The position numbers and the translations under genes were made by a program. Shown here one piece after another: positions 15,514-59,621 of a DNA stretch of 64,000 nt (the stretch's first letter is position 1; each line of letters begins with the position of its first letter). A model generated the notes under the pieces. It made no database searches, was not told where the DNA came from, and saw only the letters and a list, made by a program, of their open reading frames with translations. Source of the stretch: Prochloron sp. SulCav_FS08_3_32_3330 (lineage in GTDB: Bacteria > Cyanobacteriota > Cyanobacteriia > Cyanobacteriales > DYNF01); assembly GCA_020721205.1 (NCBI GenBank), contig DYNF01000007.1:1241-65240 (forward strand), written 5' to 3'.

Positions 15514-15667
15514 TCATTCTTTTTGTTTCCAACAGATTAAAATCTGTTGCTACCTAGACAAAACCCGTGAAGACGGGTTTTATGATTAAATATTAACTAA
15601 ATATTTAAAAAAATCAACCTGCGTAGGCAGGTTTTGTTTATGTAGCAACAGATTTTAATCTGTTGCC
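15514..15667 (+). mobile_element. Four-hairpin MITE, copy 1 (divergent, lacks a clear right terminal repeat)
   Basis: Same architecture as the copies at 19.7, 28.7, 37.3 and 59.5 kb. Hairpins 1 and 4 read caacagatt...aatctgttg (compensated changes). Hairpin 2 is flipped (cccgtgaagacggg). Confidence 0.75.
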
Positions 15668-15677
15668 TAAATGTATT

Positions 15678-16718
15678 TTATCTGTAAGGAGTATCAACAA
15701 ATCCTAAATCATAAAGCTGTTGATAAGCCTGTCTTCCTAAATCACCGCTAGGAGACTGAGAGCCAATCACTTGAATCAGTAAAGGAATAGCCAGAGGAGC
15801 TTGATTTTGTTGACGATGAATCAATGCCATTTGATAGGTACTTTCATCCCGTTTTTGTCCCGTTTCAAACGCTCTTTTTCTTTGATCTGCGTAAATATCG
15901 GGGTTAATACCTTGAAAAACATCTGCTAATCTGAGATGAAGACTCGATAATTGTTGAAACATTTGACGAGCTTCTTGTAATTTAGCGATCGCACCCTCAT
16001 AATCTTGTTGATCAATTTTTTCTTGAGCCTGTATCATTAAATTTTGTCCAACAGTAAAACTGAAAATATCATTTTCCGAGGCGATCGGTTGATTTACCAG
16101 AGTTTCAGGAGTTTCGCTATTATTTTCCTCTGGATTAGTTTCAGGAGTTTCAGGAGTTTCAGGAGTTGATAAAGGAATATTCGTAAAACCAAAAGCCAGA
16201 AGACGTTGATAAGCTTGTTTTCCTAGATCACTGGTAGGTAACTGAGACTCTAAAACTTGAATCAATAAAGGGAGGGCTAAAGGAGCTTCTCCCGCTTCCT
16301 CATGGGTAACAGCTAATAAATAAGTCACTTCATCCCGTTTTTGTCCAGCATCTAAAGCACTTCTACGTCTAGCATTATAAATATTATTATTAACTCCCTG
16401 AAATTGATTTGCTAGTTGCAAATGAAAATTAGAAAGTTGATTAAAAACTTGACGAGATTCCTGTAACTTTTCAATCGCTAAGGAATAATTTTGAGCAGAA
16501 ATAGCTGTAGTGGCTTCTGTGTGTAATCTTTCGCCCCCCGCCATACTAAAAAGATTATCTTGGGATAAAGGGCGCACAATCGTAACACCAGAGTTATTAA
16601 TATTTTCTTCAGGAATAGGAGTTTGAGCATTAACATTAATTTTTGGGGTTAATACTAGAATTAATAACAGAGAAAATAGACTTTTAGAGAATAAAAAAAG
16701 TGACTTAAAGCGAAACAT
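15678..16718 (-). CDS. Secreted protein with an internal ~150-aa duplication and TPE linker
   Basis: 346 aa; signal-peptide-like N-terminus. Two homologous halves ('LQESRQVFNQLSNFHLQLANQFQG...' and 'LQEARQMFQQLSSLHLRLADVFQG...') joined by 'TPETPETPET'. Confidence 0.5.
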   Translation of the reverse strand: MFRFKSLFLFSKSLFSLLLILVLTPKINVNAQTPIPEENINNSGVTIVRPLSQDNLFSMAGGERLHTEATTAISAQNYSLAIEKLQESRQVFNQLSNFHLQLANQFQGVNNNIYNARRRSALDAGQKRDEVTYLLAVTHEEAGEAPLALPLLIQVLESQLPTSDLGKQAYQRLLAFGFTNIPLSTPETPETPETNPEENNSETPETLVNQPIASENDIFSFTVGQNLMIQAQEKIDQQDYEGAIAKLQEARQMFQQLSSLHLRLADVFQGINPDIYADQRKRAFETGQKRDESTYQMALIHRQQNQAPLAIPLLIQVIGSQSPSGDLGRQAYQQLYDLGFVDTPYR

Positions 16719-16823
16719 AAAATTAAAGTAATAACTCAGCTAAATTTAATAAAATTTATTTATTTACATATCTTAACATTTATAATTCAAAATTCCCCAT
16801 TCAAAAAAGGTTTTCTAACAACA

Positions 16824-16853
16824 AGTATAGACGTGCCATGGCACGTCTATACT
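16824..16853 (-). terminator. Perfect 30-bp palindrome downstream of the S41 protease gene
   Basis: agtatagacgtgccatggcacgtctatact is self-complementary and lies 14 bp after the stop of the 16867-18189 gene, with a distal U-rich tract on the minus strand. Confidence 0.5.
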
Positions 16854-16866
16854 TCAAATTTTCTGT

Positions 16867-18189
16867 TTAAGGACGGGCTTGACGAGTAGAAGAATTTTGT
16901 GCTGTAATTTCATCACTTAGTACATCCCAAGCTTTCACAAATTGAGGATCATCAAAAGTACCGATTAAATTACGATCACGAGAAAGAGTTTGTCTTTCTT
17001 CATCACTCAATTCAGAAATTATATCAGGATGGATCCCTTCCTTATTAATATCACGACCATTAGGAGTTAAATATTTAGCAATAGTCACCGCCATTCCCGC
17101 TTGACTATGGTTTAATTCTTTCACAGATTGAACCAAACCCTTGCCAAAAGTTTTTGTTCCCACTAACTTAGCACGATGATGATCTTGAAGCGCACCAGAA
17201 AGAATTTCACTAGCACTAGCGGATCCACCATCTACTAAAACCACTAAAGGTTTATCACTTAAAGCACGATGATTAGCCGATTCCACATCCACCGTCCCTT
17301 GACGATTAACAGTAGACACAATTGTGCCATCATCAATCCACATTCTCGCAATTTCAATACTAGCGCTTAAAAGACCCCCCGGATTAGACCTTAAGTCTAA
17401 AACATAACCTTTTACCCCTTGATCTTCTAAGTCAGCAATCGCATCATCCATTTCCCCTGAAGCTTGAGCGCTAAACTGATTAAGACGAATATAACCAATT
17501 TTACCAAGATCAGAATTATGATCAATTACTTTAAAACTGACAGGATGAATTTGAATAATATCTCGGATAATAGGAAAATCTTTAATTTCTTCCTTAATCT
17601 CCTCCCCTTCTTTATTTTCCCGAAGGATCGTTAAAATAACTTCTGTACCCCGTATCCCTCTAATTTTACTTACCGCTTCTTCCAGAGTCATTCCCTCCGT
17701 AGTAATACCATCAATTTTAATAATTGTATCCCCACCATAAATTCCAGCCCGAAAAGCTGGACTACCTTCAATCGGTGATTCCACAAAGATTTTACCCGTT
17801 TCTTCATCCTGTCGAATCTGGATCCCCACCCCAGTTAATTCGCCCGAAGTATCAATTTTCATATTTTGAAACTGCTCGGGATCCATAAATCTTGTATAGG
17901 GATCATCAAGATTTTTTAACATTTCTCGGATCGCTTCGTAAGCTTCTTCATCAGTGTTATAGGTCCGTCCTAAATATTCTTGACGAATTGCTCTCCAATC
18001 TTTACCATTAAATGTGCCATCCACATATTCTCGATAGACAATTTGCCATACTTCATCCACCAGTTCTTTAGAACTGTCTGAATATAAAGATTGACTATGG
18101 GAAAGGTGGATCCCTGCCCCAATCACGGCAACGGTCGTAACTGCCATTGCCGTGCATCCGAGAATTAGTCCTCGTTTTGAAATAATCAT
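16867..18189 (-). CDS. Carboxyl-terminal processing protease (S41, Ctp family)
   Basis: 440 aa; N-terminal TM/signal; PDZ region 'GVGIQI...SPIEGSPAFRAGI'; 'RSNPGGLL', 'GSASASEI', 'TFGKG'. Confidence 0.88.
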   Translation of the reverse strand: MIISKRGLILGCTAMAVTTVAVIGAGIHLSHSQSLYSDSSKELVDEVWQIVYREYVDGTFNGKDWRAIRQEYLGRTYNTDEEAYEAIREMLKNLDDPYTRFMDPEQFQNMKIDTSGELTGVGIQIRQDEETGKIFVESPIEGSPAFRAGIYGGDTIIKIDGITTEGMTLEEAVSKIRGIRGTEVILTILRENKEGEEIKEEIKDFPIIRDIIQIHPVSFKVIDHNSDLGKIGYIRLNQFSAQASGEMDDAIADLEDQGVKGYVLDLRSNPGGLLSASIEIARMWIDDGTIVSTVNRQGTVDVESANHRALSDKPLVVLVDGGSASASEILSGALQDHHRAKLVGTKTFGKGLVQSVKELNHSQAGMAVTIAKYLTPNGRDINKEGIHPDIISELSDEERQTLSRDRNLIGTFDDPQFVKAWDVLSDEITAQNSSTRQARP

Positions 18190-18463
18190 AAGCGAATTAA
18201 TTAAGATAGGTGAATTAATATTAAGATGATCTACTATATATTTAAAATTTTAGCTTTAAATTTCGGAATTTACTTGAAGCAATTGATGTTAATATATCCC
18301 ATTGCCTTCAATTATAACAACAGCTAAACAGGAAACCTATTTTCCGAATAGATTTGTTAAATGCGAGGGCGACGATCGCTTCTACTAACTTCTATTATAT
18401 CTAATCTTGAAAAGAATTTTTGATCTACTATAATTAAACGGGGATCAATGGAGTAACAAATCA

Positions 18464-19309
18464 ATGACAAGTATTGTATCAGTTTCTTCTGAACAACTAA
18501 GAGAACGCAGAAAACAACTTAGACGAGAAAAAAAAATCTTTTTTTGGCAGGGTTTATGGCGTTTTACCTTAATTACGGCGATCACAGGCGGGTTAACTTG
18601 GATTATTACTCGTCCTAACTGGATTATTTACGAAAATACCCAAATTGAGATTGAAGGGAATCAATTTTTATCTCAAGATGCCATTCGAGCTTTATTACCT
18701 TTATCTTACCCTCAATCTTTATTACAAATTCAACCTCAAGAATTAGTCAATCAATTAGAGTCTACCGGACCCATTGCCGAGGCGGTGGTTTCTCGTCAGG
18801 TATTTCCCCCCAGTTTGACGATTGAAGTAAGGGAAAGAAAACCTGTAGCGATCGCCCCTTCTCCTTTTGATAATGAACCCGGATTTTTAGATGCCCAAGG
18901 AATTTGGATGCCCCAAAGCAGTTATACTCAAATTAAAGAGAAATTAGATTTACCAAAATTAAGGGTTTTAGGTTTTCAAGAAGAATTAAGATCCCATTGG
19001 CAAACTCTTTATCCTTTAATTCAGCGTTCTGTGGTAAAAATTACCGTAGTAGATTGGCACAATCCCAATAATTTAGTTTTAGTGACAGAATTAGGAAAAG
19101 TCCATTGTGGTGGGACGGATGCTTTTCTGAATGAACAGTTAAGGGTATTAACAAAAATGCGAGAATTACCCAATCAGATTGCGATTACAGAGATTGAATA
19201 TATAGATTTAACTAATCCCCAATATCCCACGATTCAATTAGTTAGGGATCCCAAAAGTCCTTCAGGAGGGGCTACTTTTTCATCATCGGAAATTGCCCAA
19301 AGGCTTTAG
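18464..19309 (+). CDS. ftsQ: Cell division protein FtsQ
   Basis: 281 aa; basic N-terminus, single TM helix, POTRA-like 'IEIEGNQFLSQDAIRALL'. Size and architecture of cyanobacterial FtsQ. Confidence 0.7.
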   Translation: MTSIVSVSSEQLRERRKQLRREKKIFFWQGLWRFTLITAITGGLTWIITRPNWIIYENTQIEIEGNQFLSQDAIRALLPLSYPQSLLQIQPQELVNQLESTGPIAEAVVSRQVFPPSLTIEVRERKPVAIAPSPFDNEPGFLDAQGIWMPQSSYTQIKEKLDLPKLRVLGFQEELRSHWQTLYPLIQRSVVKITVVDWHNPNNLVLVTELGKVHCGGTDAFLNEQLRVLTKMRELPNQIAITEIEYIDLTNPQYPTIQLVRDPKSPSGGATFSSSEIAQRL

Positions 19310-19394
19310 TCTGACAAAATTTCACTGACAATATAAAATTATCTTGAACATACAGCCCTTTGCGTAACGGTTAGGTACAATTTATTTTCCCCCT

Positions 19395-19717
19395 CTCCTG
19401 TGGGCAGGGTGTTTTCATTCTCAAATTTTGTGATCTTTATAACCTTTTTCTGATCAAGTTTTTAGCTTGTTTTTGATATTAATTAGTCAAATATTATTAA
19501 AAAACCTGATCATTGTTAACAGAAATTTAGTTCAATTTATTGAACGATTTTTATTAGCAATGAAATTCATTTCATTGCGGTATCAATACTTTCAGGGATA
19601 ACTGTGTGTAATTAACCCGCTTTGAAATAGAATTTCAAAGCTAATAGCGATCGTTCAATAAATTGAACTAAGAAAACGCAATTTACCCCCGAGAATGAAA
19701 ACGCCCTGCTCCTGTGG
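19395..19717 (+). mobile_element. MITE variant A: same terminal repeats as the four-hairpin MITE, different interior
   Basis: Left terminal repeat gcagggtgttttcattc (19404-19420), right repeat gaatgaaaacgccctg (19693-19708), flanked by the 9-bp direct repeat ctcctgtgg (19395-19403 and 19709-19717). Confidence 0.8.
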
Positions 19718-20040
19718 GCAGGGCGTTTTCATTCTTTTTTTTCCAACGGGTTAAAACCCGTTGCTACCCAAACAAAACCCGTCTTCACGGGTTTCGAGAT
19801 TAAATATTAACTAATATTAAAAAAATTCAACCTGCGTAGGCAGGTTTTGCTTATGTAGCAACGGGTTTCAACCCGTTGCTTTTTGAGATCAGTTTTTTAG
19901 CTTGTTTTTGATATTAATTAATCAAAAATTATGAAAAAACGGATCAAAATTTAAAATTCAAGTCGCTTTAGCAGACTTTTGCTATTAGCTGTGAAATTTA
20001 TTTCAAAGCGGTTTTATTATTTATTCCTTTAACTTTGTTT
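19718..20040 (+). mobile_element. Four-hairpin MITE copy 2 fused to a rearranged variant-A-like tail
   Basis: The left terminal repeat starts directly after variant A's right duplication. The core ends near 19879. It is followed by a 'tttttagcttgtttttgatattaatta' module (also at 19451-19480) and an inverted copy of the 'gctttgaaat...caaagctaatagc' module. No right terminal repeat. Confidence 0.7.
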
Positions 20041-20048
20041 AATAAAAA

Positions 20049-22364
20049 TTAATAACATTTCATCACAGAATCAGGAAATTTTTGCTTTAAAAAATTAATA
20101 ATTGGACAGGGATCTTGTGTTTGTAAATTAGTTTTATCTTTCCCACGAAAAATACTCCAACTAAACGGTGCTTTGTTAGAAGCTGACATCCAAAGTAATT
20201 TTTTTGCCCTCGTCATTGCCACATAAAGTAAACGATAAGATTCTGCTTTTTGTAATAAAATTGCTTCTTGCCAAGCCTCATGAGGTAAGGGAATTTGTAC
20301 ATTATTATTATGCTCTAAATATTGACTATGTAAAACACTTCTAATCTGTACTCTTGCCACTTCAGCTAAAGTGAAATTACCCAAAAATTTAGTCGAATTT
20401 GGCACCCAAGGATCACCCGGAAGGGTTTTTTCATGCAAAAATGGCAAGAAAACATAATCCCAATCTAATCCTTTAGCTTTGTGCATAGTAATAATTGTTA
20501 GTTGTTTCGGACGCACATATTTATTTTCCGTTTCTTCTTCTACCCCTTCAAACTGTTCAGAATTAACAATTTCTGTTAAGGTAGAAATAATATTTTTTAA
20601 GGAACTTTTCCCGATAATTTGTTGATTAATTCTTTCCGATAATTTTTGAATTGTGGCTAATTCTGCCCCTTGACATTGTAAAGTCATACCCAAAAAAGAA
20701 ATTAATTGATAATGAGGTAATTCTAATCTCGCTTTGAGTAAATTACAACAATATTGACGGGCATTTTTAACCATTTCTTTTTGAGGGGGATCAAGAGGAG
20801 TTGGATATAAAAATATTTCGGGATTTGTTGCCAATAAATTTAAGTCTTGAGTAGCAATTAATTGACGAATTTCTAATACTTCTAAAGCGGATTTTAATAA
20901 CTCACAAGAATGGGGGCGATCAATAAATTGTAATAATTTTAAAATTTCTTCAGGAATATGAGAATGACGATCACTTTCACTAACTTCATAAACTTTAATC
21001 CCATATTCTTGATATAAATGACTCAATTCTTTAGCAATAAAACGTCCTTGACGATTTTCTCTTACTAAAATTGCCCCACTATGATCGGGATTATTTGTTA
21101 ATAATTCAATTACTCTTTTTTCCATTAATTTAACAGTATGAAATATATCTTCAGGAGTATAAATTTCTAAGCCTTTTCCTTCAGGATTAGGATTAGCATT
21201 AAGTTGAGGATCATTAATATCAACAGGCTGAATATTTTGACGACGAAAAGGATATTTATTTACCAATTTTTGAGCATTAAGTTGTTCCGTTTTATCCCAT
21301 ACATCACAAATCCAATTTAACATAAAATTAGAAGCCTCTAAAATAATTTGACTACTTCTTCCTGCTTGATCCATTGTTGCTAATTTACCTTGATTTTGAC
21401 AAGTTTCACAAAACCAATTAAAATACATAGGATCCGCAGGGGTAAAAGTAGAATTAATGGCTTGATTAGGGTCTCCTACTCTAACTAAATTACTTTCATT
21501 TTGGTCAAAATCCTGTGCCAAAATTGTAATTAATCTCTCTTGTAATGGGCTAGAATCTTGTGCTTCATCTTCAAAAACTGCAAATATTTGATGTTGCCAA
21601 ATTTGTCGAATTTCTGGATTTTCTAATACTTTTAATGCTCCTAAAATCATATCATCATAATCAATAAAATTATTCTCTTTCATCACTTTTTGATATTCTG
21701 CAAATAACCCGGCTGATACCGCTAAAATTTCATACTCATCCCTCGATTTTTCACTCATTTCCCATAAATTTTCGGGTAATAATCCTGAACTTTTTGCTTC
21801 CCTAATTACTTGATGAGCTAAATTTGGTAAAATTTCTGTTCTTAAAGCAGATTGACGACGTAATTTTTCTGTTTCTTCTCTATCAAATTTGTGTTTTTCT
21901 CCCTCTAATAATCTATTATATCTTTTTTTATCATTTAATATCCATTTTTCTACTGCTGTCCTCATAATTCTGTGACTAGGAGTAGGAATAACAAGGGTTG
22001 AATCTTGGGAATTTAAGCCGGATAACTCAGGATGACTATTAGCAATATTTAAAGCTAAACCGTGTAAAGTATTCACCATAAAGCCTCCGGGGGGATAGGA
22101 AAGCTCTTTTAATCTGTCTCTAATCTTACTTTTAATACTAGCGGCGGCAGAACGGGTATAAGTCACGATCAACAGTTGACGACGGGAATGTAGCTGATTT
22201 TTAATAATAGCGATCGCCGCCGCTACGGAGAGACTATGGGATTTTCCCGCCCCCGGCACGGCAGAAACCGCCATCTGACCGCCTTCCCATTCTGCTAAAC
22301 TTTTTTGTCCTGATCTGAGGCTTTGTTTAAGAGTTTTTAAATGAGGAATTACTGAGGCTATCAT
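20049..22364 (-). CDS. UvrD/Rep-family ATP-dependent DNA helicase
   Basis: 771 aa; motif I 'AVPGAGKSH', motif II 'FEDEAQD', 'TMHKAKGLDWDYVFLP', 'LLYVAMTRAKKLL'. Confidence 0.8.
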   Translation of the reverse strand: MIASVIPHLKTLKQSLRSGQKSLAEWEGGQMAVSAVPGAGKSHSLSVAAAIAIIKNQLHSRRQLLIVTYTRSAAASIKSKIRDRLKELSYPPGGFMVNTLHGLALNIANSHPELSGLNSQDSTLVIPTPSHRIMRTAVEKWILNDKKRYNRLLEGEKHKFDREETEKLRRQSALRTEILPNLAHQVIREAKSSGLLPENLWEMSEKSRDEYEILAVSAGLFAEYQKVMKENNFIDYDDMILGALKVLENPEIRQIWQHQIFAVFEDEAQDSSPLQERLITILAQDFDQNESNLVRVGDPNQAINSTFTPADPMYFNWFCETCQNQGKLATMDQAGRSSQIILEASNFMLNWICDVWDKTEQLNAQKLVNKYPFRRQNIQPVDINDPQLNANPNPEGKGLEIYTPEDIFHTVKLMEKRVIELLTNNPDHSGAILVRENRQGRFIAKELSHLYQEYGIKVYEVSESDRHSHIPEEILKLLQFIDRPHSCELLKSALEVLEIRQLIATQDLNLLATNPEIFLYPTPLDPPQKEMVKNARQYCCNLLKARLELPHYQLISFLGMTLQCQGAELATIQKLSERINQQIIGKSSLKNIISTLTEIVNSEQFEGVEEETENKYVRPKQLTIITMHKAKGLDWDYVFLPFLHEKTLPGDPWVPNSTKFLGNFTLAEVARVQIRSVLHSQYLEHNNNVQIPLPHEAWQEAILLQKAESYRLLYVAMTRAKKLLWMSASNKAPFSWSIFRGKDKTNLQTQDPCPIINFLKQKFPDSVMKCY

Positions 22365-25304: not shown

Positions 25305-25598
25305 TTAATTCAATATAATATCTTCACTTTTAATACCTGCTTTAATCAGAGAATAGGTTAAACCTTCTTCAAAATTATCCTCCTCAATCACAATTTTACT
25401 ATTATCAACTAAACGGGCATGAAATAAAATATTATTAATCCATTTTTTTTGATCAATACCTGTAGCTAAAACCAAAAAATTACCTGAATCACTATCACAA
25501 ACAGGATAAATTTTAATAGTTTGTAAACTAGGTTGATTCAAAGTAGCTTCTTGCAATGTTTTTTTTATAATTTCTGTGTAATTTAATGAGTTAGCCAT
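25305..25598 (-). CDS. xisI: XisI-family protein
   Basis: 97 aa, overlapping the stop of the XisH ORF by 16 nt. Sequence pattern and pairing typical of XisI. Confidence 0.7.
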   Translation of the reverse strand: MANSLNYTEIIKKTLQEATLNQPSLQTIKIYPVCDSDSGNFLVLATGIDQKKWINNILFHARLVDNSKIVIEEDNFEEGLTYSLIKAGIKSEDIILN

Positions 25599-26002
25599 TG
25601 TGTAATAACCTCCTGTTCAGGTTCATAAACTAATAAATTAATTTTAGTACGGGTGAGTGCTAATTGAAAAATGGGTTTTTGAAAGTGTCTGATATAAATA
25701 TCTTGATTGATGGCTAAAAATAGTTGACGTTCAGGCTCTTGTGTTTCTAAAGCCCATTGATAAAGTTGAATTTGTCCCATAGTTTTTTCCAGTTCACTAA
25801 TGACAGATGGACTATCAAAATCTTTAATTTCTACTGCGATTTTACGTCCTTCTTTCTCAGCTATAAAAAATTTTTCAGCCCCCAGATCTGCCCTTAAAAG
25901 TGTTTCTTCTAGGATTAAAATTAAAGGATCATTAGTAATTTTCCAGCCATCTTTTTCCAGTGTGCGACACAGGGAATAATGTAAATTATCTCGCCTAGAC
26001 AT
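25583..26002 (-). CDS. xisH: XisH-family protein
   Basis: 139 aa; N-terminal 'RRDNLHYSLCRTLEKDGWKITNDPL' closely follows the XisH consensus as I recall it. Confidence 0.75.
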   Translation of the reverse strand: MSRRDNLHYSLCRTLEKDGWKITNDPLILILEETLLRADLGAEKFFIAEKEGRKIAVEIKDFDSPSVISELEKTMGQIQLYQWALETQEPERQLFLAINQDIYIRHFQKPIFQLALTRTKINLLVYEPEQEVITQWLTH

Positions 26003-28378: not shown

Positions 28379-28628
28379 GATTTACTGAAAAAAATAGAGA
28401 TGTGAATTAACTCATCTCTATTTAACATCAAAACTGTCTTAATAGCAAAAAGCTCTATATATTGATCACAATAGTTAAGAAATTCATAAATATCTTCACG
28501 TTTTACTTTCATTTTCGACTTTCCCAATATTTTGTATTTTTTATTTCTAAAGTAGCTAGGCGCAATTAAATATAAAACAATTGTAGGATATGCCCTGCCC
28601 CGAATGGTTTTATGGTAATTCTTTTAAG

Positions 28629-28829
28629 CTTTTGTAGCAGGGCGTTTTCATTCTTTTTTTTTCAACGGGTTAAAACCCGTTGCTACCCAAACAAAACCCG
28701 TCTTCACGGGTTTTCTGATTAAATATTAACTAATATTAAAAAATTAAACCTGCGTAGGCAGGTTTTGTTTATGTAGCAAGGGGTTTCAACCCTTTGCCTC
28801 CCGAGAATGAAAACGCCCTGCTTTTGTAG
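28629..28829 (+). mobile_element. Four-hairpin MITE copy 3 (complete, with target-site duplication)
   Basis: Perfect 16-bp terminal repeats cagggcgttttcattc (28638-28653) / gaatgaaaacgccctg (28805-28820), flanked by the 9-bp direct repeat cttttgtag (28629-28637, 28821-28829). Confidence 0.9.
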
Positions 28830-28875
28830 GGCAGGGCATACCGATCATTTAATTATGCCGACTTACTTAATTATT

Positions 28876-37172: not shown

Positions 37173-37210
37173 TATCTAACATAAATTAAAACAATTGTAG
37201 GGTATGCCCT

Positions 37211-37411
37211 GCTACAGCATGGCGTTTTCATTCTTTTTTTTCCAACGGGTTAAAACCCGTTGCTACCCAAACAAAACCCGTCTTCACGGGTTTTCTGATT
37301 AAATATTAACTAATATTAAAAAATTAAACCTGCGTAGGCAGGTTTTGTTTATGTAGCAAGGGGTTTCAACCCCTTGCCTCCCGAGAATGAAAACACCCTG
37401 CTGCTACAGAG
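37211..37411 (+). mobile_element. Four-hairpin MITE copy 4 (complete, with target-site duplication)
   Basis: Terminal repeats catggcgttttcattc (37220-37235) / gaatgaaaacaccctg (37387-37402), flanked by the 9-bp direct repeat ctgctacag (37211-37219, 37403-37411). Confidence 0.88.
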
Positions 37412-46354: not shown

Positions 46355-46790
46355 TATTTAGCAGCGATCGCACCCCAATCTCCCCTACAAAGCGATCGCA
46401 CCTTAAACTCCCCTAAAAAGCGATCGCACCCCAAACTCCCCCACAAAGCGATCGCACCCCAAACTTCCCCAAAGAGCGATCGCACCTTAAACTCCCCTAC
46501 AAAGCGATCGCACCTCAAACTCCCCAAAGAGCGATCGCACCCCAAACTTCCCCAAAGAGCGATCGCACCCCAAACTTCCCCAAAGAGCGATCGCACCCCA
46601 AACTTCCCCAAAGAGCGATCGCACCTCAAACTCCCCTAAAAAGCGATCGCATATCTAACTCCCCTCAAAAAGCGATCGCACCTCAAACTCCCCTAAAAAG
46701 CGATCGCACCACCAACTCCAACAACAAGCGATCGCATCCCAAACTCCCCTAACAAGCGATCACATCTCAATCTCTCCTTACAGGAGATAA
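46355..46790 (-). repeat. 28-bp HIP1-containing minisatellite, 15 units
   Basis: GCGATCGC at 46364, 46392, 46420, 46448, 46476, 46504, 46531, 46559, 46587, 46615, 46643, 46672, 46700 and 46728, plus a degenerate gcgatcac at 46756. Unit approximately AAAGCGATCGCACCYCAAACTYCCCYAA. No unique spacers. Confidence 0.95.
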
Positions 46791-51765: not shown

Positions 51766-52629
51766 ATGGCTTGGTCAAGAGGCTATAGATTAAATAATGG
51801 TAAATATACCATTAGTCAAGTATTAGGTGAAGGTGGTTTTGGAATTAGCTATCTTGCTACAGATTATCAGGGAAAAAATGTGGTAATTAAAACTTGTAAT
51901 GATAGTGTTAGACGAGAGCCAAATTTTGCGAAATTTCAACAAGATTTTGTCAATGAAGCTCTTAGACTAAGAGGATGTCAGCATCCTCATATTGTTCAAG
52001 TTTATGAGTTAATTCAAGAAGGTTCATTGTGGTGTATGGTTATGGAGTATATATCAGGTAAAAGTTTGTGGGATTCAGTTAAAAGTTCTGGATATTTAAC
52101 AGAAGGAGAAGCGTTAATAAATATTCAGTTTATTGGAGAAGCCCTTAAAGTTGTGCATCGAAATGGTTTATTACATCGAGATTTAAACCCTAAAAATATT
52201 ATGATAGACCGATTATTTGGAGCAACATTAATTGATTTTGGTTTAGCTCGTGAATTTGTCACTAATCGAACTAAAACTCATACGGTAGCTGCTTTTCCTG
52301 GATTTGCTCCTATTGAACAGTATGGTACAAGAAATAAACGAGGAGCTTATACTGATGTTTATGGTTTAGCCGCCTCATCCTACTACGCTTTAACAGGTCA
52401 AATTCCTACATCTGCTCCTGATCGAGTTTCAGGAATTAGATTAGAGTCACCACAATGGTTAAATCCACAGATTAGTAATCGGATCAATCAAGCTATTTTA
52501 GATGGTATGGAATTATATCCAGAAAATCGTCCTCAATCAGTGCAGGAATGGTTAAATGGTTTGACAAACAGTCCTCCTCCGGTTGATTTTAAGCAATTTG
52601 CAAATCTCGTTGATCCTCAAGGGTTTTAG
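51766..52629 (+). CDS. Stand-alone Hanks-type Ser/Thr protein kinase (catalytic domain only)
   Basis: AAGGAGG lies 8 nt upstream of the ATG at 51766. 'GEGGFGISYLA' G-loop, 'VVIKT', 'HRDLNPKNIM', 'DFGLA', 'APIEQ'. No sensor or repeat domain. Confidence 0.85.
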   Translation: MAWSRGYRLNNGKYTISQVLGEGGFGISYLATDYQGKNVVIKTCNDSVRREPNFAKFQQDFVNEALRLRGCQHPHIVQVYELIQEGSLWCMVMEYISGKSLWDSVKSSGYLTEGEALINIQFIGEALKVVHRNGLLHRDLNPKNIMIDRLFGATLIDFGLAREFVTNRTKTHTVAAFPGFAPIEQYGTRNKRGAYTDVYGLAASSYYALTGQIPTSAPDRVSGIRLESPQWLNPQISNRINQAILDGMELYPENRPQSVQEWLNGLTNSPPPVDFKQFANLVDPQGF

Positions 52630-52772
52630 AGGAGTTTTGAGGTGCGATCGCTTTGGTAAGGGAGTTTTGAGGTGCGATCGCTTTTTAAGGGAGTTTGAAG
52701 TGCGATCGCTCTTTAGGGTAGTTTGAGGTGCGATCGCTTTTAGTGGTAGTTTGGGGTGCGATCGCTTTTAAG
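52630..52772 (+). repeat. Cluster of 5 units of the 28-bp HIP1 repeat (GGGAGTTTGAGGTGCGATCGCTTTT)
   Basis: HIP1 at 52644, 52674, 52702, 52730 and 52758. Starts at the kinase stop codon. Reverse-complement orientation relative to the 46.3-46.8 kb array. Confidence 0.9.
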
Positions 52773-52835
52773 GACAAATCAGTAATTATAGATTATGATT
52801 ATAATAGTTTATTGTTAATTTTGAGGAATTTACTA

Positions 52836-53857: not shown

Positions 53858-54130
53858 ATGACAGCAACAAATATCATGTTATCCCTAGAACAAGCCCAAG
53901 TAGAGAATAATTGGCAATTTACAGAGGTTTGGATTGATCCGATGTTAACACCTCCTTATCTACTTTTATTATTAGTTGATAGTGAAGGAAAATGTCATAT
54001 TTATGATCCTGCTAAAGATTATCAAGTAATATTTTCTAGTAATGATTATGAAACAGCTAAATTATGGTTATTAGAGGATGAATATGAACCAATTGAGGGT
54101 AGATTATCTTTAGATGAATTGCTTGTTTGA
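53858..54130 (+). CDS. Hypothetical 90-aa acidic protein (immunity/antitoxin-like, unassigned)
   Basis: ORF 16 nt downstream of 53572-53841. Acidic ('LLEDEYEPIEGRLSLDELL'). No motif recognised. Confidence 0.35.
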   Translation: MTATNIMLSLEQAQVENNWQFTEVWIDPMLTPPYLLLLLVDSEGKCHIYDPAKDYQVIFSSNDYETAKLWLLEDEYEPIEGRLSLDELLV

Positions 54131-54243
54131 AGGGTGGTTTGAGGTGCGATCTCTTTGATGGGGGTTTAAGGCGCGATCTCTTTTGTAAGGGAGTTAGTGA
54201 TGAGATCGCTTGTTGGGGAGTTTAAGATGCGATCTCTTTTAAC
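54131..54243 (+). repeat. 4 units of the 28-bp repeat (gcgatctc variant)
   Basis: gggtggtttgaggtgcgatctc / ggggtttaaggcgcgatctc / gggagttagtgatgagatcgc / gggagtttaagatgcgatctc. Confidence 0.8.
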
Positions 54244-54306
54244 CACAAATTGGTAATTATAGATTATGATCGCATTAGTTCATTCTTGATATTGAGGAAA
54301 TTACTA

Positions 54307-54597
54307 ATGATTACAGTTAATCAAAATCTAAATAATAATGACCTTTTAGCATTAGTTAAAAAAGTCGAAACTGAAGGCGAAAGAATCATTATTGAAACGG
54401 AAAATAAGGGAAAAGTAGCTCTTATTAATTATCAAGATTTACAATTGTTAGAAGATTTAGAAGATGCTAGAGATTGTGCTGAATTACGTCAAGCAATAGA
54501 AGAAAGTAAGGGGCAACCTAGTATTACCTTTAATGAGTTATTAGACGAATTAGGTTTAACAATTGAAGATTTAACATCTGGAGATGAAAATGAGTAA
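54307..54597 (+). CDS. Phd/YefM-like antitoxin (paralog of 52836-53111)
   Basis: The first ~40 codons are identical at the protein level to 52836-53111. The C-terminus diverges, with an extra 'LEDLED'. Confidence 0.55.
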   Translation: MITVNQNLNNNDLLALVKKVETEGERIIIETENKGKVALINYQDLQLLEDLEDARDCAELRQAIEESKGQPSITFNELLDELGLTIEDLTSGDENE

Positions 54598-54859
54598 AGA
54601 ATATTCTTTAATTATTGAACATTCGGCTAGAAAAAGTTTAAAAAATCTTCAACCCAAATTTATAAAACAGATTGTTTTTAAGATATTTACTTTACAAGAT
54701 AATCCTTTTCCTCAAGACTCTACAAAATTAAAGGGTTTTGAGGACAGTTATCGAGTAGATCAAGGTGAATATCGTATTTTATATACCGTTGAGGATGATA
54801 AAATTAGGGTATTTAAAATTGGTAAACGTAATGATGACGAAGTTTATCAAAATTTATAA
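54584..54859 (+). CDS. RelE/ParE-family toxin (paralog of 53095-53373)
   Basis: The C-terminal ~45 aa are nearly identical to 53095-53373 ('NPFPQDS.KLKGFEDSYRVDQGEYRILYTVEDDKIRVFK.GKRNDDEVYQNL'). The N-terminal third diverges. Confidence 0.7.
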   Translation: MKMSKEYSLIIEHSARKSLKNLQPKFIKQIVFKIFTLQDNPFPQDSTKLKGFEDSYRVDQGEYRILYTVEDDKIRVFKIGKRNDDEVYQNL

Positions 54860-54861
54860 GT

Positions 54862-54948
54862 AGGGTAGTTTGGGATGCGATCTCTTTTTGAAGGGAGATT
54901 GAGGTGCGATCTCTTGTTAGGTGGATTGAGGTGCGATCTCTTTTAATG
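54862..54948 (+). repeat. 3 units of the 28-bp repeat (gcgatctc variant)
   Basis: gggtagtttgggatgcgatctc / gggagattgaggtgcgatctc / gtggattgaggtgcgatctc. Confidence 0.8.
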
Positions 54949-55025
54949 ATAATTGCTATTATTGATAGCTTGTTGTTATAATCAAATTGATCGCTTTTTA
55001 TTAAAGTATCAAGGAAAATAAACTT

Positions 55026-55277
55026 ATGACTATTACTATTAATCTGCGTCCAGAAATAGAAACACAACTAACCGAAAAAGCAACAAAACAAGGTAAAGAT
55101 ATTTCAGAAATTGTAACTGAAATTATTACAAATGCGATAGAATTAGAATTACAAGATTATCAAGAAACTATCAAAGGGATTGCTAAAGGATTAGAAGATT
55201 TTGAAACAGGTAATTTTCGTTCTTTTGAAGATTTTACTAATGAACAATGTCGTAAATATAATTTATCTTTAGAATAA
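55026..55277 (+). CDS. RHH/ParD-like antitoxin
   Basis: 83 aa; 'MTITINLRPEIETQL' beta-strand start and 'GLEDFETGNFRSFEDF' tail, typical of antitoxins paired with ParE/RelE. Confidence 0.55.
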   Translation: MTITINLRPEIETQLTEKATKQGKDISEIVTEIITNAIELELQDYQETIKGIAKGLEDFETGNFRSFEDFTNEQCRKYNLSLE

Positions 55278-55345
55278 TGAAATATAAAATAGAAATCTCT
55301 AGTTTAGCAGAATCTGAAGCAGTTAAAGCTTTTTTATCGCTTTAA
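55277..55345 (+). pseudogene. Truncated ParE/RelE toxin gene (22 codons)
   Basis: The ATG overlaps the antitoxin stop (TAATG). 'MKYKIEISSLAESEAVKAFLSL*' is the usual ParE N-terminus cut short 4 bp before the oppositely oriented vapC. Confidence 0.6.
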
Positions 55346-55349
55346 TATT

Positions 55350-55754
55350 TTATAAATCAGGCTTTTTAACAGTTGAATTAGATAAATTTTGAGATTTTCT
55401 AATAAATTTCTCATCAAAAGTATAAAATTCTAAACAATGATTACTAGAAGCTAAATGAAAAGCATCTGCAAAATCTACACCTTTTTCATGCCATTCAATC
55501 ACTTGTAAAATCAACCTTTCATCAGTTAAATAAACATTAGGTAATCCAAAAACTTTTCTCAAAGCTTGACCAATTTCTACAGGTTTAAATTTATAAGCAA
55601 AACGTAATACCCATTCAGTTTCTAAGATAACAGTCTCAGCAATAAAAATATTTTTATTTTCAAACAATCTTAAGCTTTGCTGATATTGTAGTTTATCATC
55701 TTGAGTAATTAATCTAACAAGAATATTAGTATCAATAGCAATTATTGATTCCAT
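55350..55754 (-). CDS. vapC: PIN-domain toxin VapC
   Basis: 134 aa; 'IIAIDTNILVRL', 'ETVILETEWVL', 'DFADAFHL', 'YTFDEKF'. Confidence 0.8.
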   Translation of the reverse strand: MESIIAIDTNILVRLITQDDKLQYQQSLRLFENKNIFIAETVILETEWVLRFAYKFKPVEIGQALRKVFGLPNVYLTDERLILQVIEWHEKGVDFADAFHLASSNHCLEFYTFDEKFIRKSQNLSNSTVKKPDL

Positions 55755-55999
55755 GATTTTTCTATTCCCTGAGCAATAGCTTGATCCATTTCTTCAATTG
55801 TTTTTGCTTTTCCTTGATACTTCAAACACCCTGCAACATCAGCTAATTTAGTTTCAGGAAAAACTTTTTTAGGCTTTAATAAAATACCATCACCAAAATT
55901 AATTATAATTAATTCTTGACCATCTTCCCAATGAAACTGATCCCTTAAGATTTTGGGAATAGTAACTTGACCTTGACTTGATAATTTAGTAATTTCCAT
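55742..55999 (-). CDS. vapB: AbrB/MazE/SpoVT-family antitoxin (VapB)
   Basis: 85 aa; 'KLSSQGQVTIPKILRDQF' looped-hinge-helix motif; overlaps the vapC start by 13 nt. Confidence 0.75.
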   Translation of the reverse strand: MEITKLSSQGQVTIPKILRDQFHWEDGQELIIINFGDGILLKPKKVFPETKLADVAGCLKYQGKAKTIEEMDQAIAQGIEKSWNQ

Positions 56000-56092
56000 T
56001 GATAAATATTACTTCTATTTTTTCTATCTAAGTCTAACATAAATTACTGTCTGTGTAAAACTGATCACTGTGCGATCGCTTGTTTATATTAA

Positions 56093-56377
56093 TTATTCGT
56101 AAACTTTACTTCGATGAGCAATTAAAATTATTGTCACCAGAATTAAATTATCATTAATTTCATAAACAACTCGATAATCACCAACTCGATAACGATAATA
56201 ACCAGAATATTCACCTTTTAAAGGTTTAATATTTGGATGATAACGAGGATTGATTTTCAATTGTTCAAAACAACGATCTAATTTCTTTTGTAAAGAAGCA
56301 GGAGATGCTTCAAAAAACTTCTGAGCATCAACTTCAATAACAATATGATAATTAATATTTTCGCTTGAGTTGCTCAA
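56093..56377 (-). CDS. RelE/ParE-family toxin
   Basis: 94 aa; 'GYYRYRVGDYRVVYEINDNLILVTIILIAHRSKVY'. Confidence 0.7.
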   Translation of the reverse strand: MSNSSENINYHIVIEVDAQKFFEASPASLQKKLDRCFEQLKINPRYHPNIKPLKGEYSGYYRYRVGDYRVVYEINDNLILVTIILIAHRSKVYE

Positions 56378-56582
56378 CAGGTATCACCTTCCCTTGTTCA
56401 ACATTTTGCTTGGCTTTTTCAAAAGACTCTTTGAAACCATTAATTTTTAATAATTCTTCAGTGGGATCATCTTCCTCTTTTTCAGCTAAATAAGCCAAAA
56501 AATCTACTGCAACTAAAAGCTTTTGTGTTGATAGTTGCTCAACATAATCTTGAATTTGACTACGAAGTTGTATTGCGTCCAT
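56352..56582 (-). CDS. Putative antitoxin of the adjacent RelE/ParE toxin
   Basis: 76-aa ORF upstream of, and overlapping, the toxin gene. Helical, with an acidic middle. Confidence 0.5.
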   Translation of the reverse strand: MDAIQLRSQIQDYVEQLSTQKLLVAVDFLAYLAEKEEDDPTEELLKINGFKESFEKAKQNVEQGKVIPVEQLKRKY

Positions 56583-56651
56583 AAAAATAGCATTAACACA
56601 ATTAATTTATGTAAAAGTATAACATTTTTTTTGTTTTTTGACTAAAAAACT

Positions 56652-56748
56652 ATGCGATCGCTTGGTAGGGGAGTTGGTGGTGCGATCGCTCTTTGGTGGA
56701 GTTTGAGGTGCGATCGCTTGGTAGGGGAGTTGGTGGTGCGATCATTTA
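56652..56748 (+). repeat. 4 units of the 28-bp HIP1 repeat
   Basis: ctatgcgatcgc / ggggagttggtggtgcgatcgc / ggtggagtttgaggtgcgatcgc / ggggagttggtggtgcgatca. The last two overlap the 5' end of the BrnT ORF. Confidence 0.85.
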
Positions 56749-57001
56749 TGATAAAGTTATTTTATTATTATCAAAACATGGTATTTCATTTGAAGAAGCT
56801 CAAACTGTTTTTGATGATCCGTTATATGTAGATTTTTATGATCCTGACCACTCAGAAGATGAAGATCGTTATATTATTGTAGGAGAATCATCAAACAGTC
56901 GTGTTTTGTTAGTCTCTTATACGGAAAGATGCGATAAAATTAGACTTATTAGTGCAAGACAAGTTACCAAACAAGAATTAATTGCTTATCAGGAGGGTTA
57001 A
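56693..57001 (+). CDS. brnT: BrnT-family (DUF497) toxin
   Basis: 'KHGISFEEAQTVFDDPL...DRYIIVGESSNSRVLLVSYTERCDKIRLISARQVTKQE'. The only in-frame starts (TTG/GTG) lie within the repeat cluster. Confidence 0.7.
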   Translation: MVEFEVRSLGRGVGGAIIYDKVILLLSKHGISFEEAQTVFDDPLYVDFYDPDHSEDEDRYIIVGESSNSRVLLVSYTERCDKIRLISARQVTKQELIAYQEG

Positions 57002-57005
57002 AACA

Positions 57006-57209
57006 ATGGAAGATCAACTTAGAGATGAATATGATTTAAAAACTTTAAAAGTCAGGAAAATGGGAGCTAAACGTAAGAAATTTGGTGATAATATTATTAA
57101 ATTAGATTCAGATGTTGCTGAAGTTTTTTCTAGTGCTGAATCTGTTAATTCTGCTTTAAGATTTTTAATTAAAATTACTAAAGAAAATAAAGATCAAGCT
57201 ATATTTTAA
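57006..57209 (+). CDS. brnA: BrnA-family antitoxin
   Basis: In-frame ATG at 57006 (MEDQLRDEYDLKTLKVRKMG...), 5 nt after the brnT stop. The 'EYD...K' start and C-terminal RHH-like 'VNSALRFLI' are typical. Confidence 0.6.
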   Translation: MEDQLRDEYDLKTLKVRKMGAKRKKFGDNIIKLDSDVAEVFSSAESVNSALRFLIKITKENKDQAIF

Positions 57210-57210
57210 T

Positions 57211-57260
57211 TATGATCGCTTGTTTGGGAGATTGGAGTGTGATCGCTTTTAATAATATTG
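57211..57260 (+). repeat. 2 degenerate units of the 28-bp repeat (right edge of the TA island)
   Basis: ttatgatcgcttgtt / tgggagattggagtgtgatcgctttta. Confidence 0.6.
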
Positions 57261-57391
57261 TCTACTCTACAGTTAGGTTGTCTAAATGTCGAGGATTTTA
57301 CGTCAGTTAATTTTAACAAAATAAGTTAAGTAAAATTACCGACTTTGATATAATGATAGGTAATTTTTAAGAGAAATTTAAAGGGAAATAT

Positions 57392-58123
57392 ATGAAAATT
57401 CATCAATTGCAAAGAATTGTGATTAAGCCTGAACAAATACAGGAAAATAAGATTATTTTTACCTCGGATCAAGAGCATTATATTTATCGAGTTTTACGGT
57501 TAAAAGAAGGGAATCAAATTATTGTGATGGATGGCAAAGAAAAAGCATGGTTAGTCAATATTGAAAAAGAATCTAATCTAATTGTAAAACCTTTTGTCCA
57601 AAAAACTGAATTACCTGTTAATATTACTTTAATTTGTGCTTTACCAAAGGGTAATAATTTTGAGGAAATTGTGCGCTGTTGTACGGAGTTAGGTGTTAAT
57701 TCTATTATACCTGTAATTAGTGCAAGAACTTTACTTAAACCCGGTGAAAATAAAGTACAAAGATGGCGTAAAATTGCTTTAGAATCTGCTGAACAATCGG
57801 AACGTCAATTAGTTCCTAGTATAACGGATCCTTTACCTTTTGTTGATATTTTTAAGCACATAAATTTAGATCATAGTAATAATTATATTTGTGTGGCAAG
57901 GGGGGAAAATCCTCATTTGTTATCCTCTTTACAAAAGCAATCTTCACAAGATATCATAATTATGACAGGTACAGAAGGAGGCTGGACTGATTCAGAAATT
58001 GACACAGCAATTAAATTAAATTTTCAACCTATTTCCCTCGGAAAACGTATTTTAAGGGCTGTTACTGCACCGATTATGGCTTTATCCTTAATTTCTAGTT
58101 ATTATGAAATAAAAAAAATTTAG
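57392..58123 (+). CDS. rsmE: 16S rRNA (uracil1498-N3)-methyltransferase
   Basis: 243 aa; 'HYIYRVLRLKEGNQI' PUA-like N-terminus, 'KWRKIALESAEQSER', 'GTEGGW...E'. Confidence 0.85.
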   Translation: MKIHQLQRIVIKPEQIQENKIIFTSDQEHYIYRVLRLKEGNQIIVMDGKEKAWLVNIEKESNLIVKPFVQKTELPVNITLICALPKGNNFEEIVRCCTELGVNSIIPVISARTLLKPGENKVQRWRKIALESAEQSERQLVPSITDPLPFVDIFKHINLDHSNNYICVARGENPHLLSSLQKQSSQDIIIMTGTEGGWTDSEIDTAIKLNFQPISLGKRILRAVTAPIMALSLISSYYEIKKI

Positions 58124-58284
58124 GTTTGTTGGTGCATTTAGCACCATAAATTATAAATTAAAGACAATCTTAGTACAGCAATGAATTTATTTATAAAACA
58201 TTTTAATAAACTAAAATAAGTCTTATTTTTTTTTCGTATTAATCCTAATAATTAGGGTAAATAGTGCTAAATGCAACAACAAAC
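58123..58284. repeat. Inverted pair of REP-like units enclosing ~115 bp
   Basis: ggtttgttggtgcatttagcaccat (58123-58146) and tagtgctaaatgcaacaacaaac (58262-58284). Confidence 0.7.
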
Positions 58285-58320
58285 TTATTAATAACTAATC
58301 GTAAATAACAACTAATAATT

Positions 58321-59421
58321 ATGTTTGAAAATATAGCCGAAGCTATTAAAAATAAAGATTATCAAAACGCAAAAGAATTAATCCAACATTTGCGTAAAGA
58401 GGATCCAGAAAATCCTTGGTTAGATTTTTATACTGCCCATTTATATGAAATAAAAGGTAAAATAAATGAGGCAAAAAATGCTTATACTTATCTTTTAAAA
58501 GATACTATTAATCCTAAATTAATGAGTAAAATTCGTCAAGGAATTGAACGGATTAATCAAGTAGAAAAACAGGAAAAAGAACAAGCATTAATTAAGTTTA
58601 AATCTCAAGCAGGGGCGGAAGAAATGGGTGTATTTATCTTAGAATCAGTGCTAAAAGAGGATAAAACTATTGCGGCTCAAAATTTTGGTAAAATTATGGG
58701 GATGGATGCTTATAGTGCTAGATTACAAATTCCTAGTCGTTCATGGCGTTTATATCGTATTGGTATGATGGGAGAATTATCTTATTATGTTAATAGTTTA
58801 AAAGCGGTTAATATTCCTTGTTTTTGTTTACCAATTAATCAAATTAATCAATTGTCTGTTTATCAAGTTCAATATATTGAAAGTATTAATTCTGAAGTGA
58901 CAGTAATCTGTGAAAATAGCGAAGGTAAAGAAGGAAAATTTAGATTTAATTGGTTAGAAGTTAGTCAAAGAGTTGAAGGTCTAGTACCTATTTTTGAAAA
59001 TTCTTTTAAGTTTAATGCAAAACGGGAAATATATTATAAAAAAGAAATATTAGATTATGCTCAATTTTGTGATTTACATTTTCCTCATCGGAATACAATT
59101 TTAAGAATTTGTGATCAAAGTTATAATTTTAAAAAAGGCATTAATTTAATTAATTCTAATAATGCCCATAATTTACTAAATAAAGAAGTTACGATTAGAA
59201 AAAAATGGTCTAATTTTTTGCAATTTATTAATCAACAAATCCCAAATATTCCTCTTTTGTCTGAATTTACTTTTTTTGGTGAAACGGCTCTTGATTTTAA
59301 GGAATTTCTGTCAGAAATTACACCTCATATTTATTTATTTCGTCAAGAGCCTACTCTTTGGGATCAAGCTTTTCATTTATATAGTAGTTTAATTTTTCTC
59401 AGGTTCGTTGTTGGGCTTTAG
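58321..59421 (+). CDS. Hypothetical protein with TPR-like N-terminus
   Basis: 366-aa ORF; N-terminal 'YQNAKELIQHLRKEDPENPWLDFYTAHLYEIKGKINEAKNAY' is TPR-like. The last codons run into a REP-like unit. Confidence 0.45.
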   Translation: MFENIAEAIKNKDYQNAKELIQHLRKEDPENPWLDFYTAHLYEIKGKINEAKNAYTYLLKDTINPKLMSKIRQGIERINQVEKQEKEQALIKFKSQAGAEEMGVFILESVLKEDKTIAAQNFGKIMGMDAYSARLQIPSRSWRLYRIGMMGELSYYVNSLKAVNIPCFCLPINQINQLSVYQVQYIESINSEVTVICENSEGKEGKFRFNWLEVSQRVEGLVPIFENSFKFNAKREIYYKKEILDYAQFCDLHFPHRNTILRICDQSYNFKKGINLINSNNAHNLLNKEVTIRKKWSNFLQFINQQIPNIPLLSEFTFFGETALDFKEFLSEITPHIYLFRQEPTLWDQAFHLYSSLIFLRFVVGL

Positions 59422-59621
59422 CCCTACGCCGAAAAGTGTTTTCATTCTTTTTTTTCAACGGGTTAAAACCCGTTGCTACCCAAACAAAACCCGTCTTTAC
59501 GGGTTTTCTAATTAAATATTAACTAATATTAAAAAAATTCAACCTGCGTATGCCTGTTTTGCTTATGTAGCAACGGGTTTCAACCTGTTGCTTTTTGGAG
59601 AATGAAAACACCCTACGCCGG
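59422..59621 (+). mobile_element. Four-hairpin MITE copy 5 (degenerate), inserted inside a REP-like cluster
   Basis: Terminal repeats gtgttttcattc / gaatgaaaacac; 'cctacgccg' on both sides (59422-59430, 59612-59620). Hairpin 3 is broken (cctgcgtatgcctg). Confidence 0.8.

Follow-up and report, generated by a model that had tools for sequence, protein, structure and literature searches.

What moves a short, non-coding repeat through a genome, and why do its hairpin stems stay paired when other parts of it change? The question is raised by a 64,000-nt stretch of Prochloron sp. SulCav_FS08_3_32_3330 (contig DYNF01000007.1), which is called the window in the following. In the window, a family of MITEs (short for miniature inverted-repeat transposable elements) had been predicted that contain four hairpins (H1 to H4), are bounded by 16-bp terminal repeats and are flanked by 9-bp target duplications. 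Taken as a whole, the findings are best explained by a MITE of the ISAs1 type that is probably moved by a transposase from elsewhere in the genome, with its stems kept mainly by templated DNA events.

The copy c3 was compared with the window by BLAST, and the positions found were checked for open reading frames (ORFs). This confirmed five copies, all on the + strand and all located between ORFs:

15504..15684, + strand: c1, an old copy (BLAST match 15513-15668)
19719..19886, + strand: c2, a chimera (BLAST match 19719-19879)
28638..28820, + strand: c3, a complete 183-bp MITE
37218..37400, + strand: c4, a complete MITE with one mismatch per terminal repeat
59432..59615, + strand: c5, a decayed copy (BLAST match 59438-59614)

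The fourth copy is real, with its start and end corrected here by 2 nt to 37218-37400. The 16-mer terminal repeat was matched 8 times in the window at up to 3 mismatches, where 0.44 matches were expected. The H3 motif was found 9 times and the H2 motif 5 times, each against an expectation of 0.01. A BLAST search of the PLSDB plasmids with c3 gave no match, and a scan of viral contigs for the core gave a single one, a chance match inside a coding region.

The complete element is short and non-coding, and all four internal hairpins are present. In c3, the parts follow each other in the order left terminal repeat CAGGGCGTTTTCATTC, T-run, H1, H2, AT-rich palindrome, H3, H4, CCTCCCGA and right terminal repeat GAATGAAAACGCCCTG. 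The terminal repeats of c3 are perfect (16/16) and those of c4 match at 15/16 positions each. Both copies are enclosed by the predicted direct repeats, which were read from the sequence:

28629-28637 and 28821-28829, direct repeat: c3 target duplication cttttgtag, 9 bp
37209-37217 and 37401-37409, direct repeat: c4 target duplication ctgctacag, 9 bp

As a whole, the element is a dyad that matches its own reverse complement at 74% over the 183 bp. H1 and H2 have their approximate reverse complements in H4 and H3, respectively, and the AT-rich palindrome forms the centre. A single strand of c3 is predicted to fold into one long hairpin with -87.3 kcal/mol (z -12.6).

The copies c1 and c5 are eroded at both ends. 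In c1, the terminal repeats have decayed to ttaggtttattcattc (about 10/16) and aaatgtattttatctg (about 8/15), corresponding to about 55-60% identity, and all 32 stem pairs are Watson-Crick pairs. H1 and H4 of c1 both carry the AGA/TCT variant (caacAgAtt/aaTcTgttg), H4 is the exact reverse complement of H1 and the loop of H2 is flipped, as had been noticed before. The decayed right end of c1 (15669-15684) contains the stop and the last codons of the ORF 15678-16718(-), the end of which appears to be supplied by this MITE remnant. In c5, the left terminal repeat reads aaaagtgttttcattc and the right one ends with ...CACCCTA. H3 of c5 is disrupted (GCCTGTT), H4 has one G.T pair, and the 9-bp repeat can be drawn in two registers that overlap the right terminal repeat. 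The copy is flanked by inverted units of a 28-bp hairpin tandem repeat.

The origin of the element was traced through its ends. The MITE ends are identical to the 18-bp inverted repeats CAGGGYGTTTTCATTCTC of cyanobacterial insertion sequences (IS) of the ISAs1 family, as seen beside the ISAs1 transposase genes of Anabaena, Dolichospermum and a Synechococcales metagenome-assembled genome (MAG). IS with the terminal repeats of the MITE are thus found among the ISAs1-family elements of other cyanobacteria. When species-representative genomes were scanned with RAGAATGAAAACRCCCTG, at least 70 matches were obtained, about half of which are due to chance or come from unrelated taxa. The matches listed include Anabaena sp. 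54, Dolichospermum, the Synechococcales MAG (many), Geminocystis, Raphidiopsis, Trichodesmium and others, a taxonomic spread that is a lower bound.

The IS end ...TTACCCCCGAGAATGAAAACGCCCTG is located 95-97 nt from the start codon of a gene that begins with MLNSLIEKLKEVKDFR... (MLNSLIEK...). The assembled N-terminal 230 residues of this gene match the Pfam domain DDE_Tnp_1_assoc (PF13808, E 1e-21). Full-length homologues of 363-368 aa contain PF13808 and PF01609 (DDE_Tnp_1) and bear the source name ISAs1 family transposase. The cyanobacterial IS copies that were examined have the arrangement CAGGGYGTTTTCA...gene...AAATGAAAACACCCTG and are about 1.42 kb long. The right end of the MITE, CCTCCCGAGAATGAAAACGCCCTG, corresponds to the transposase-proximal end of the IS and the left end to the opposite one. 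The annotated reference ISAs1 of a Raoultella plasmid (1212 bp) has inverted repeats CAGGGCGGGATCGCAC... that start with CAGGGCG and a 10-bp direct repeat, acatgaagac; the CAGGGCG start and a duplication of 9-10 bp are therefore family traits. Since the ends of the MITE equal ISAs1 inverted repeats and the reference ISAs1 shares the CAGGGCG start and the 10-bp duplication, the element is best assigned as an ISAs1-derived MITE. Judged by its ends and its duplication length, it is apparently a new family in a poorly sampled cyanobacterial lineage. The terminal repeats, the differing 9-10-bp duplications, the multiple copies, the non-coding interior and the matched IS ends support and strengthen the predicted MITE character.

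The same 18-mer (GAGAATGAAAACGCCCTG) was also observed in MAGs of Lentisphaeria, where it ends a repeated element at about 15 loci (e.g. L024, L031, L053, L068 and L071). In the Lentisphaeria locus L025 (178-874), the 18-mer adjoins an ISAs1-like transposase that shares only 28% identity with its cyanobacterial counterpart. Even very distant ISAs1 members have thus kept the sequence of this inverted repeat.

The target site was derived from the flanks of 43 distinct ends, which read C(36) T(26) T(24) n n n A(22) A(24) G(28) and then run on into four to five G. The target is the palindromic 9-mer CTTnnnAAG, usually beside a G-run. The duplications in the window (CTTTTGTAG, CTGCTACAG and CTCCTGTGG) fit this consensus loosely. 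Three clean duplications are each different, namely cttttgtag, ctgctacag and ctcctgtggg. Because the flanks of the 43 ends follow CTTnnnAAG, the 9-mers are duplications of a preferred target and stand outside the element consensus, as the original prediction had it. The sequence ctcctgtgg, which had been assigned to a "variant A" of this family, belongs instead to a separate 304-bp element at 19405-19708 that is described below.

At six of the 43 ends, another end is met after 9-10 bp (in the window at 19693-19734, on the right flank of c3, and in L004, L026, L034 and L072). This would be expected if the duplicated target is struck again. Junctions of a right end, 9-10 bp and a left end of ISAs1-type elements were seen in unrelated cyanobacteria at L026 about 3693-3740, L004 4491-4530, L034 about 7050-7089 and L072 2263-2303. 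They suggest a second insertion into the target once it is duplicated, or else a junction like that of a circle or dimer. In L088, two cores are found in tandem, and precisely the palindromic junction of end, 9 bp and end is missing. Such a deletion offers a route to the many one-ended copies.

To follow the stems in more copies, metagenomes were scanned with a seed of unpaired segments only (ATTAAATATTAACT, a gap of 34-44 nt and TATGTAGC). The scan gave 16 loci, 13 of which were true copies, and together with the five window copies they formed an alignment of 18 copies. The 13 copies are located beside unrelated genes on low-GC contigs of uncultured cyanobacteria, whose nearest named relatives are Myxosarcina and Xenococcus (72%, AroB). 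For the window itself, the aconitase is 90% identical to that of Geminocystis. The local hairpins are paired in 97.0% of the cells of the alignment, and double changes occur at six pairs in 11 cells. None of 500 shuffles reached the observed value for pairing, for pairs or for cells, and pairing collapsed to 27-51% when the stem partners were slid against each other. The divergence from the consensus is 4.2% in the stems, 7.5% in the spacers and 15.3% in the loops.

The compensated pairs are all found in H1 and H4, except for one in the rearranged H2 of L089. GGG/CCC is changed to AGA/TCT in c1 and in H1 of L078, and AGG/CCT is found in H4 of L082. In H4 of c4 and L088, a C-G pair is replaced by G-C. 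The original prediction had claimed this compensation for the copies 3 and 4; in c4 (caaGggg/ccccCttg) all pairs are indeed compensated, whereas c3 (caagggg/cccTttg) has one G.T pair there. Intermediates of compensation were also seen, an A.C pair in L078 and G.T pairs in c5 and L080. No compensated pair was found in H3 among the 18 copies, and H3 is broken in 4 of them. Covariation is therefore real in H1 and H4, and the predicted compensatory changes do not extend to H2 and H3. Weighed against mismatches, the outcome is borderline, since all stems of the 18 copies together have 23 cells that are not Watson-Crick pairs, 7 of these being G.T, and 11 that are compensated, whereas the excess of double changes over the expectation is clear. 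A long-range pairing of H1 with H4 as the conserved structure was also considered and rejected. It is the minimum-energy fold, but it is broken by the variants in c4, L078, L082 and L088 that keep the local hairpins, and across the alignment it is poorer than the local pairing.

The covariation had been taken as a sign of selection on structure, and this step is not secured by the patterns of change. The loop of H2 occurs as CTTC and as its complement GAAG, and also as CTTT and AAAG, and the loop of H1 occurs as AA and TT. In three copies, the 3' arm of H3 has CCTG in place of CAGG, which is a copy of the other arm and not its complement. H1 of L078 is identical to H4 of c1, and in H2 of L089 the inner stem is inverted. 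Loop inversions and a "compensation" of several bases in one step are known as marks of template switching during replication (PMC8794818). The loop inversions, the copying from arm to arm and the fact that H4 of c1 is the reverse complement of H1 favour templated events, and template switching would also explain why only arms with 2-4 nt between them show compensation. Since templating keeps the arms complementary without selection, the covariation does not secure selection on structure. Templated DNA mutation or gene conversion between arms is thus regarded as the leading cause, as it fits the data at least as well as selection, which is a possible addition. A role of the hairpins as transposase substrate, which had also been proposed, is unlikely because the parent IS ends carry none of them.

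Next to c2, a second MITE family is found that has the same terminal repeats around another interior. It had gone unrecognised in the original prediction:

19405..19708, + strand: element A, 304-bp MITE of the second family, with terminal repeats CAGGGTGTTTTCATTC (left, 19405-19420) and GAATGAAAACGCCCTG (right, 19693-19708)
19395-19404 and 19709-19718, direct repeat: element A duplication ctcctgtggg, 10 bp
19887..20040, + strand: X-type MITE remnant, interior part (ttagcttgtttttgatattaattaatcaaaa...), with its homologue inside element A (75% identity over 138 bp)

The copy c2 starts immediately after the right duplication of element A and comprises the left terminal repeat, the T-run and the four-hairpin core. 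After H4, it is fused at a short shared GCTTTTTGAGA to the X-type remnant. As c2 has a left terminal repeat only and the sequence past H4 is homologous to the interior of element A, c2 evidently combines the four-hairpin MITE with an X-type MITE in one chimera. The X-type interior (ttgtttttgatattaattaatcaaaa...) of 19405-19708 has 78-80% identity over 66-100 bp to L015 207-348, L030 1449-1548 and L034 7072-7210, which are contigs of Dolichospermum and Anabaena sp. 54. By this similarity, the X-type MITE family is apparently common to several cyanobacterial orders. In L001, which comes from a different assembly of this organism (100% identity over 6758 bp), the c2 site has the X-type left end and no hairpin core.

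Could the hairpins nevertheless be kept for their function as RNA? In this alternative, which we judge unlikely as the main reason but take seriously, the cassette is under purifying selection, with H2 and H3 acting as bidirectional terminators and H1 and H4 as protective stem-loops at the 3' end. Such a mobile module for termination and stabilisation is compatible with a MITE origin and competes only on why the stems are kept. It is favoured by a covariation above all 500 shuffles, by stems that are less diverged than the spacers and loops and by the perfect stems of c1 despite its decayed terminal repeats. H3 (AAACCTGC-GTAG-GCAGGTTT) scored as terminator-like on both strands, with a G+C stem followed by a T-run, and 18 of 18 copies have an unchanged T-run after H3 and an unchanged A-run ahead of it. 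H2 is built alike, with A-tract, stem and T-tract, yet was not flagged as a terminator in the same prediction. Cyanobacteria are not known to have Rho and rely on intrinsic terminators.

The location of the copies points in the same direction. The neighbouring ORFs look like real genes (e.g. AroB, PurM, NdhE and CobN), and no copy was found between divergent gene starts. In the window, 3 of the 5 copies lie between convergent genes, compared with 11 of 60 such intergenic regions (p 0.04), and a converging gene has its 3' end towards the H4 side in 12 of 14 cases and towards the other side in 4 of 10 (Fisher p 0.03). However, a location at 3' ends is just as much to be expected where insertions are tolerated at gene ends only and the element targets the palindromes there. 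Against a function as RNA, the terminator-like H2 and H3 are without compensated pairs save the one in L089. On the + strand, 7 G.T and 2 A.C pairs were counted, and those G.T pairs would be A.C in the mRNA of the converging gene, a bias that is not significant (p 0.18). A search of the window with Rfam 15 gave 0 matches at the gathering score, the best sub-threshold match having 30 bits against a gathering score of 195, and no credible match by E-value either. A terminator role of the cassette is possible on these predictions. The further-reaching idea of a domesticated 3'-end module, in which the MITE would spread the H2/H3 terminator pair and the protective H1/H4 in a Rho-less cyanobacterium, with its orientation kept and its stems selected as RNA, seems to us quite improbable.

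The element might also belong to a different class of repeats. The four-hairpin core resembles a REPIN, that is a doublet of repetitive extragenic palindromes (REPs) with GTAG tags, which would be moved as single-stranded DNA by a REP-associated tyrosine transposase (RAYT) and only sometimes be located inside ISAs1-type repeats. CTAC follows H1 in 14 of 14 copies and GTAG precedes H4, though GTAG was part of the search seed. Many copies are without one or both terminal repeats, and from cyanobacteria, GTAG REP dimers have been reported that lie within longer palindromes (PMC3733652). However, no palindrome of the H1 or H4 type was found outside the full four-hairpin core in 624 kb of collected sequence, and the complete copies have terminal repeats of the DDE type and 9-bp duplications, features that a REPIN does not produce. 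A constant T-run joins the left terminal repeat to H1, so core and left end move as one unit. A RAYT gene did not turn up, with no search aimed at RAYT made. The classification as a REPIN was rejected on the missing solo units and on the repeats and duplications of the complete copies, and we hold it for highly improbable. That the copies are non-mobile remnants of a segmental duplication or resemble each other by chance deserves practically no credence. The flanks are unrelated, the 9-bp duplications differ, the boundaries are sharp at the terminal repeats, the shuffles reached the observed motif counts 0 times and the 13 further copies stand beside unrelated metagenome genes.

Several points weigh against an ISAs1-type MITE with templated stems. 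In line with the original prediction, no ISAs1 transposase was found in the 64,000 nt by tblastn, a search that was limited to the window. The template switching is deduced from patterns only, and c1 keeps 32 of 32 pairs despite its decayed ends, as selection would also yield. L001, the sole candidate for a pair of filled and empty sites, differs in the last 40 bp of the contig only and may be an assembly artefact. The contig L095 of a relative (aconitase 92% identical) is not syntenic and contains no copy, so it provides no empty site. Finally, 9 of the 12 copies that are readable at both ends are without one or both terminal repeats (7 without the right one). These one-ended copies need secondary deletions, or the core could also spread in another way.

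For the ISAs1-type MITE, the following course of events is proposed. A DDE transposase of the ISAs1 type, encoded elsewhere in the genome, would bind the MITE ends, recognising CAGGGCGTTTTCATTC(TC) on one side and a subterminal CC(T/C)CCGA together with GAATGAAAACGCCCTG on the other. The 183-bp unit would be inserted by a staggered cut, which would generate the 9-10-bp duplication of the CTTnnnAAG target, commonly between a C-run and a G-run. In practice, the target would be the loop of pre-existing intergenic palindromes at the 3' ends of genes. As each insertion would duplicate the preferred target, later insertions could occur beside earlier ones, leaving junctions of a right end, 9-10 bp and a left end as at 19693-19734. 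A subsequent deletion of these palindromic junctions would lead to one-ended copies, chimeras such as c2 and tandem cores such as L088. The cargo is not derived from the IS but is a dyad-symmetric cassette, in which the outer palindromes H1 and H4 are tagged with CTAC or GTAG and the inner hairpins H2 and H3 are flanked by an A-tract and a T-tract. Template switching or gene conversion, acting between neighbouring arms as well as between H1 and H4, would be the main reason why its arms remain complementary. A weak selection on the inner hairpins as putative bidirectional intrinsic terminators may add to this.

Other repeats were observed around the copies. A motif resembling an inverted-repeat end (CAGGGCATAC, complement GTATGCCCTG) is located beside TTGTAGG at 28589-28601 and 28830-28842, on both flanks of c3, and at 37199-37214 on the left of c4. 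Either the end of an eroded, related element or a piece of the preferred palindromic target may be seen in it. Tandem arrays with a period of 27-28 bp and up to 14 copies were found at the following positions:

4962-5017
13834-13981
46363-46761
52624-52773
54126-54239
54876-54955
56653-56743
59618-59703

They fall into two classes, a small hairpin (GGGCTGAAGCCC or GCGCTGAAGCGC, then CAACAAC) and a HIP1-like GCGATCGC with ACCCCAAACTCCCCTAAAA after it. Hairpin-class units are found flanking c5 and, at other loci (L014, L079 and L082), several IS or MITE ends, and c5 and several metagenome copies are located in or beside the 28-bp hairpin repeats. The window also contains XisH/XisI gene pairs at 25305-26002. 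In L095 (12646-14176), XisH/XisI pairs are found in repeated tandem copies beside the aconitase gene.

Among the known cyanobacterial MITEs, Nezha is reportedly to be attributed to Zhou et al. 2008. It has 130-170 bp, shares its terminal repeats with ISNpu3, has a direct repeat of 10 bp and is predicted to form a very stable hairpin (PMC3184786, PMC6042816). Compared by description only, the present element is similar in its IS-shared terminal repeats, the direct repeat and the stable hairpin, but Nezha has hosts in the Nostocales and no four-hairpin cassette is reported for it. The ISAs1 family has the cyanobacterial members ISMae35 and ISAsp2 (PMC2779907, PMC3542288). With IS of this family, the MITE has the CAGGGCG terminal start, the 9-10-bp duplication and the identical CAGGGYGTTTTCATTCTC ends in common; it differs in that it is without a transposase, is 183 bp long compared with 1.2-1.6 kb and has an unrelated interior. 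The genome of Anabaena sp. 90, which contains the ISAs1-family ISAsp2, has intergenic MITEs of 77-541 bp with nested inverted repeats (PMC3542288). Its authors found no IS with matching repeats and called these MITEs type II. As only coordinates are published, the resemblance of the present element to these multi-palindrome MITEs is one of description. REPINs and GTAG REP dimers consist of two inverted GTAG-tagged palindromes that are 20-100 bp apart and intergenic, and in Anabaena variabilis REP dimers are nested inside longer palindromes (PMC3116915, PMC3733652). Unlike these, the present element has DDE-type terminal repeats and target duplications and no solo REPs. SPRITE, Correia, ERIC and RUP elements (reviewed in PMC10969869) are also small palindromic repeats at gene ends that can have terminator-like stem-loops and insert into one another, but they have other parent IS families and hosts. 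The hairpins in which template switching was described (PMC8794818) likewise show apparent compensatory pairs and loop inversions at short loops. That work concerns RNA genes, whereas a repeated mobile palindrome is found here, for which the mechanism is inferred.

The repeats break short-read assemblies of the lineage, as seen in contig L001, which ends at one. A cyanobacterial MITE family is linked here to IS of the ISAs1 type, where the Anabaena sp. 90 paper had classed its MITEs as without an IS partner. The preference for a palindromic target accounts for the nested and tandem insertions. Compensatory hairpin changes that occur alongside loop inversions are a warning that, in repeated palindromes, covariation need not prove a function as RNA. 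Should the cassette indeed terminate transcription, the element would be a mobile source of terminators.

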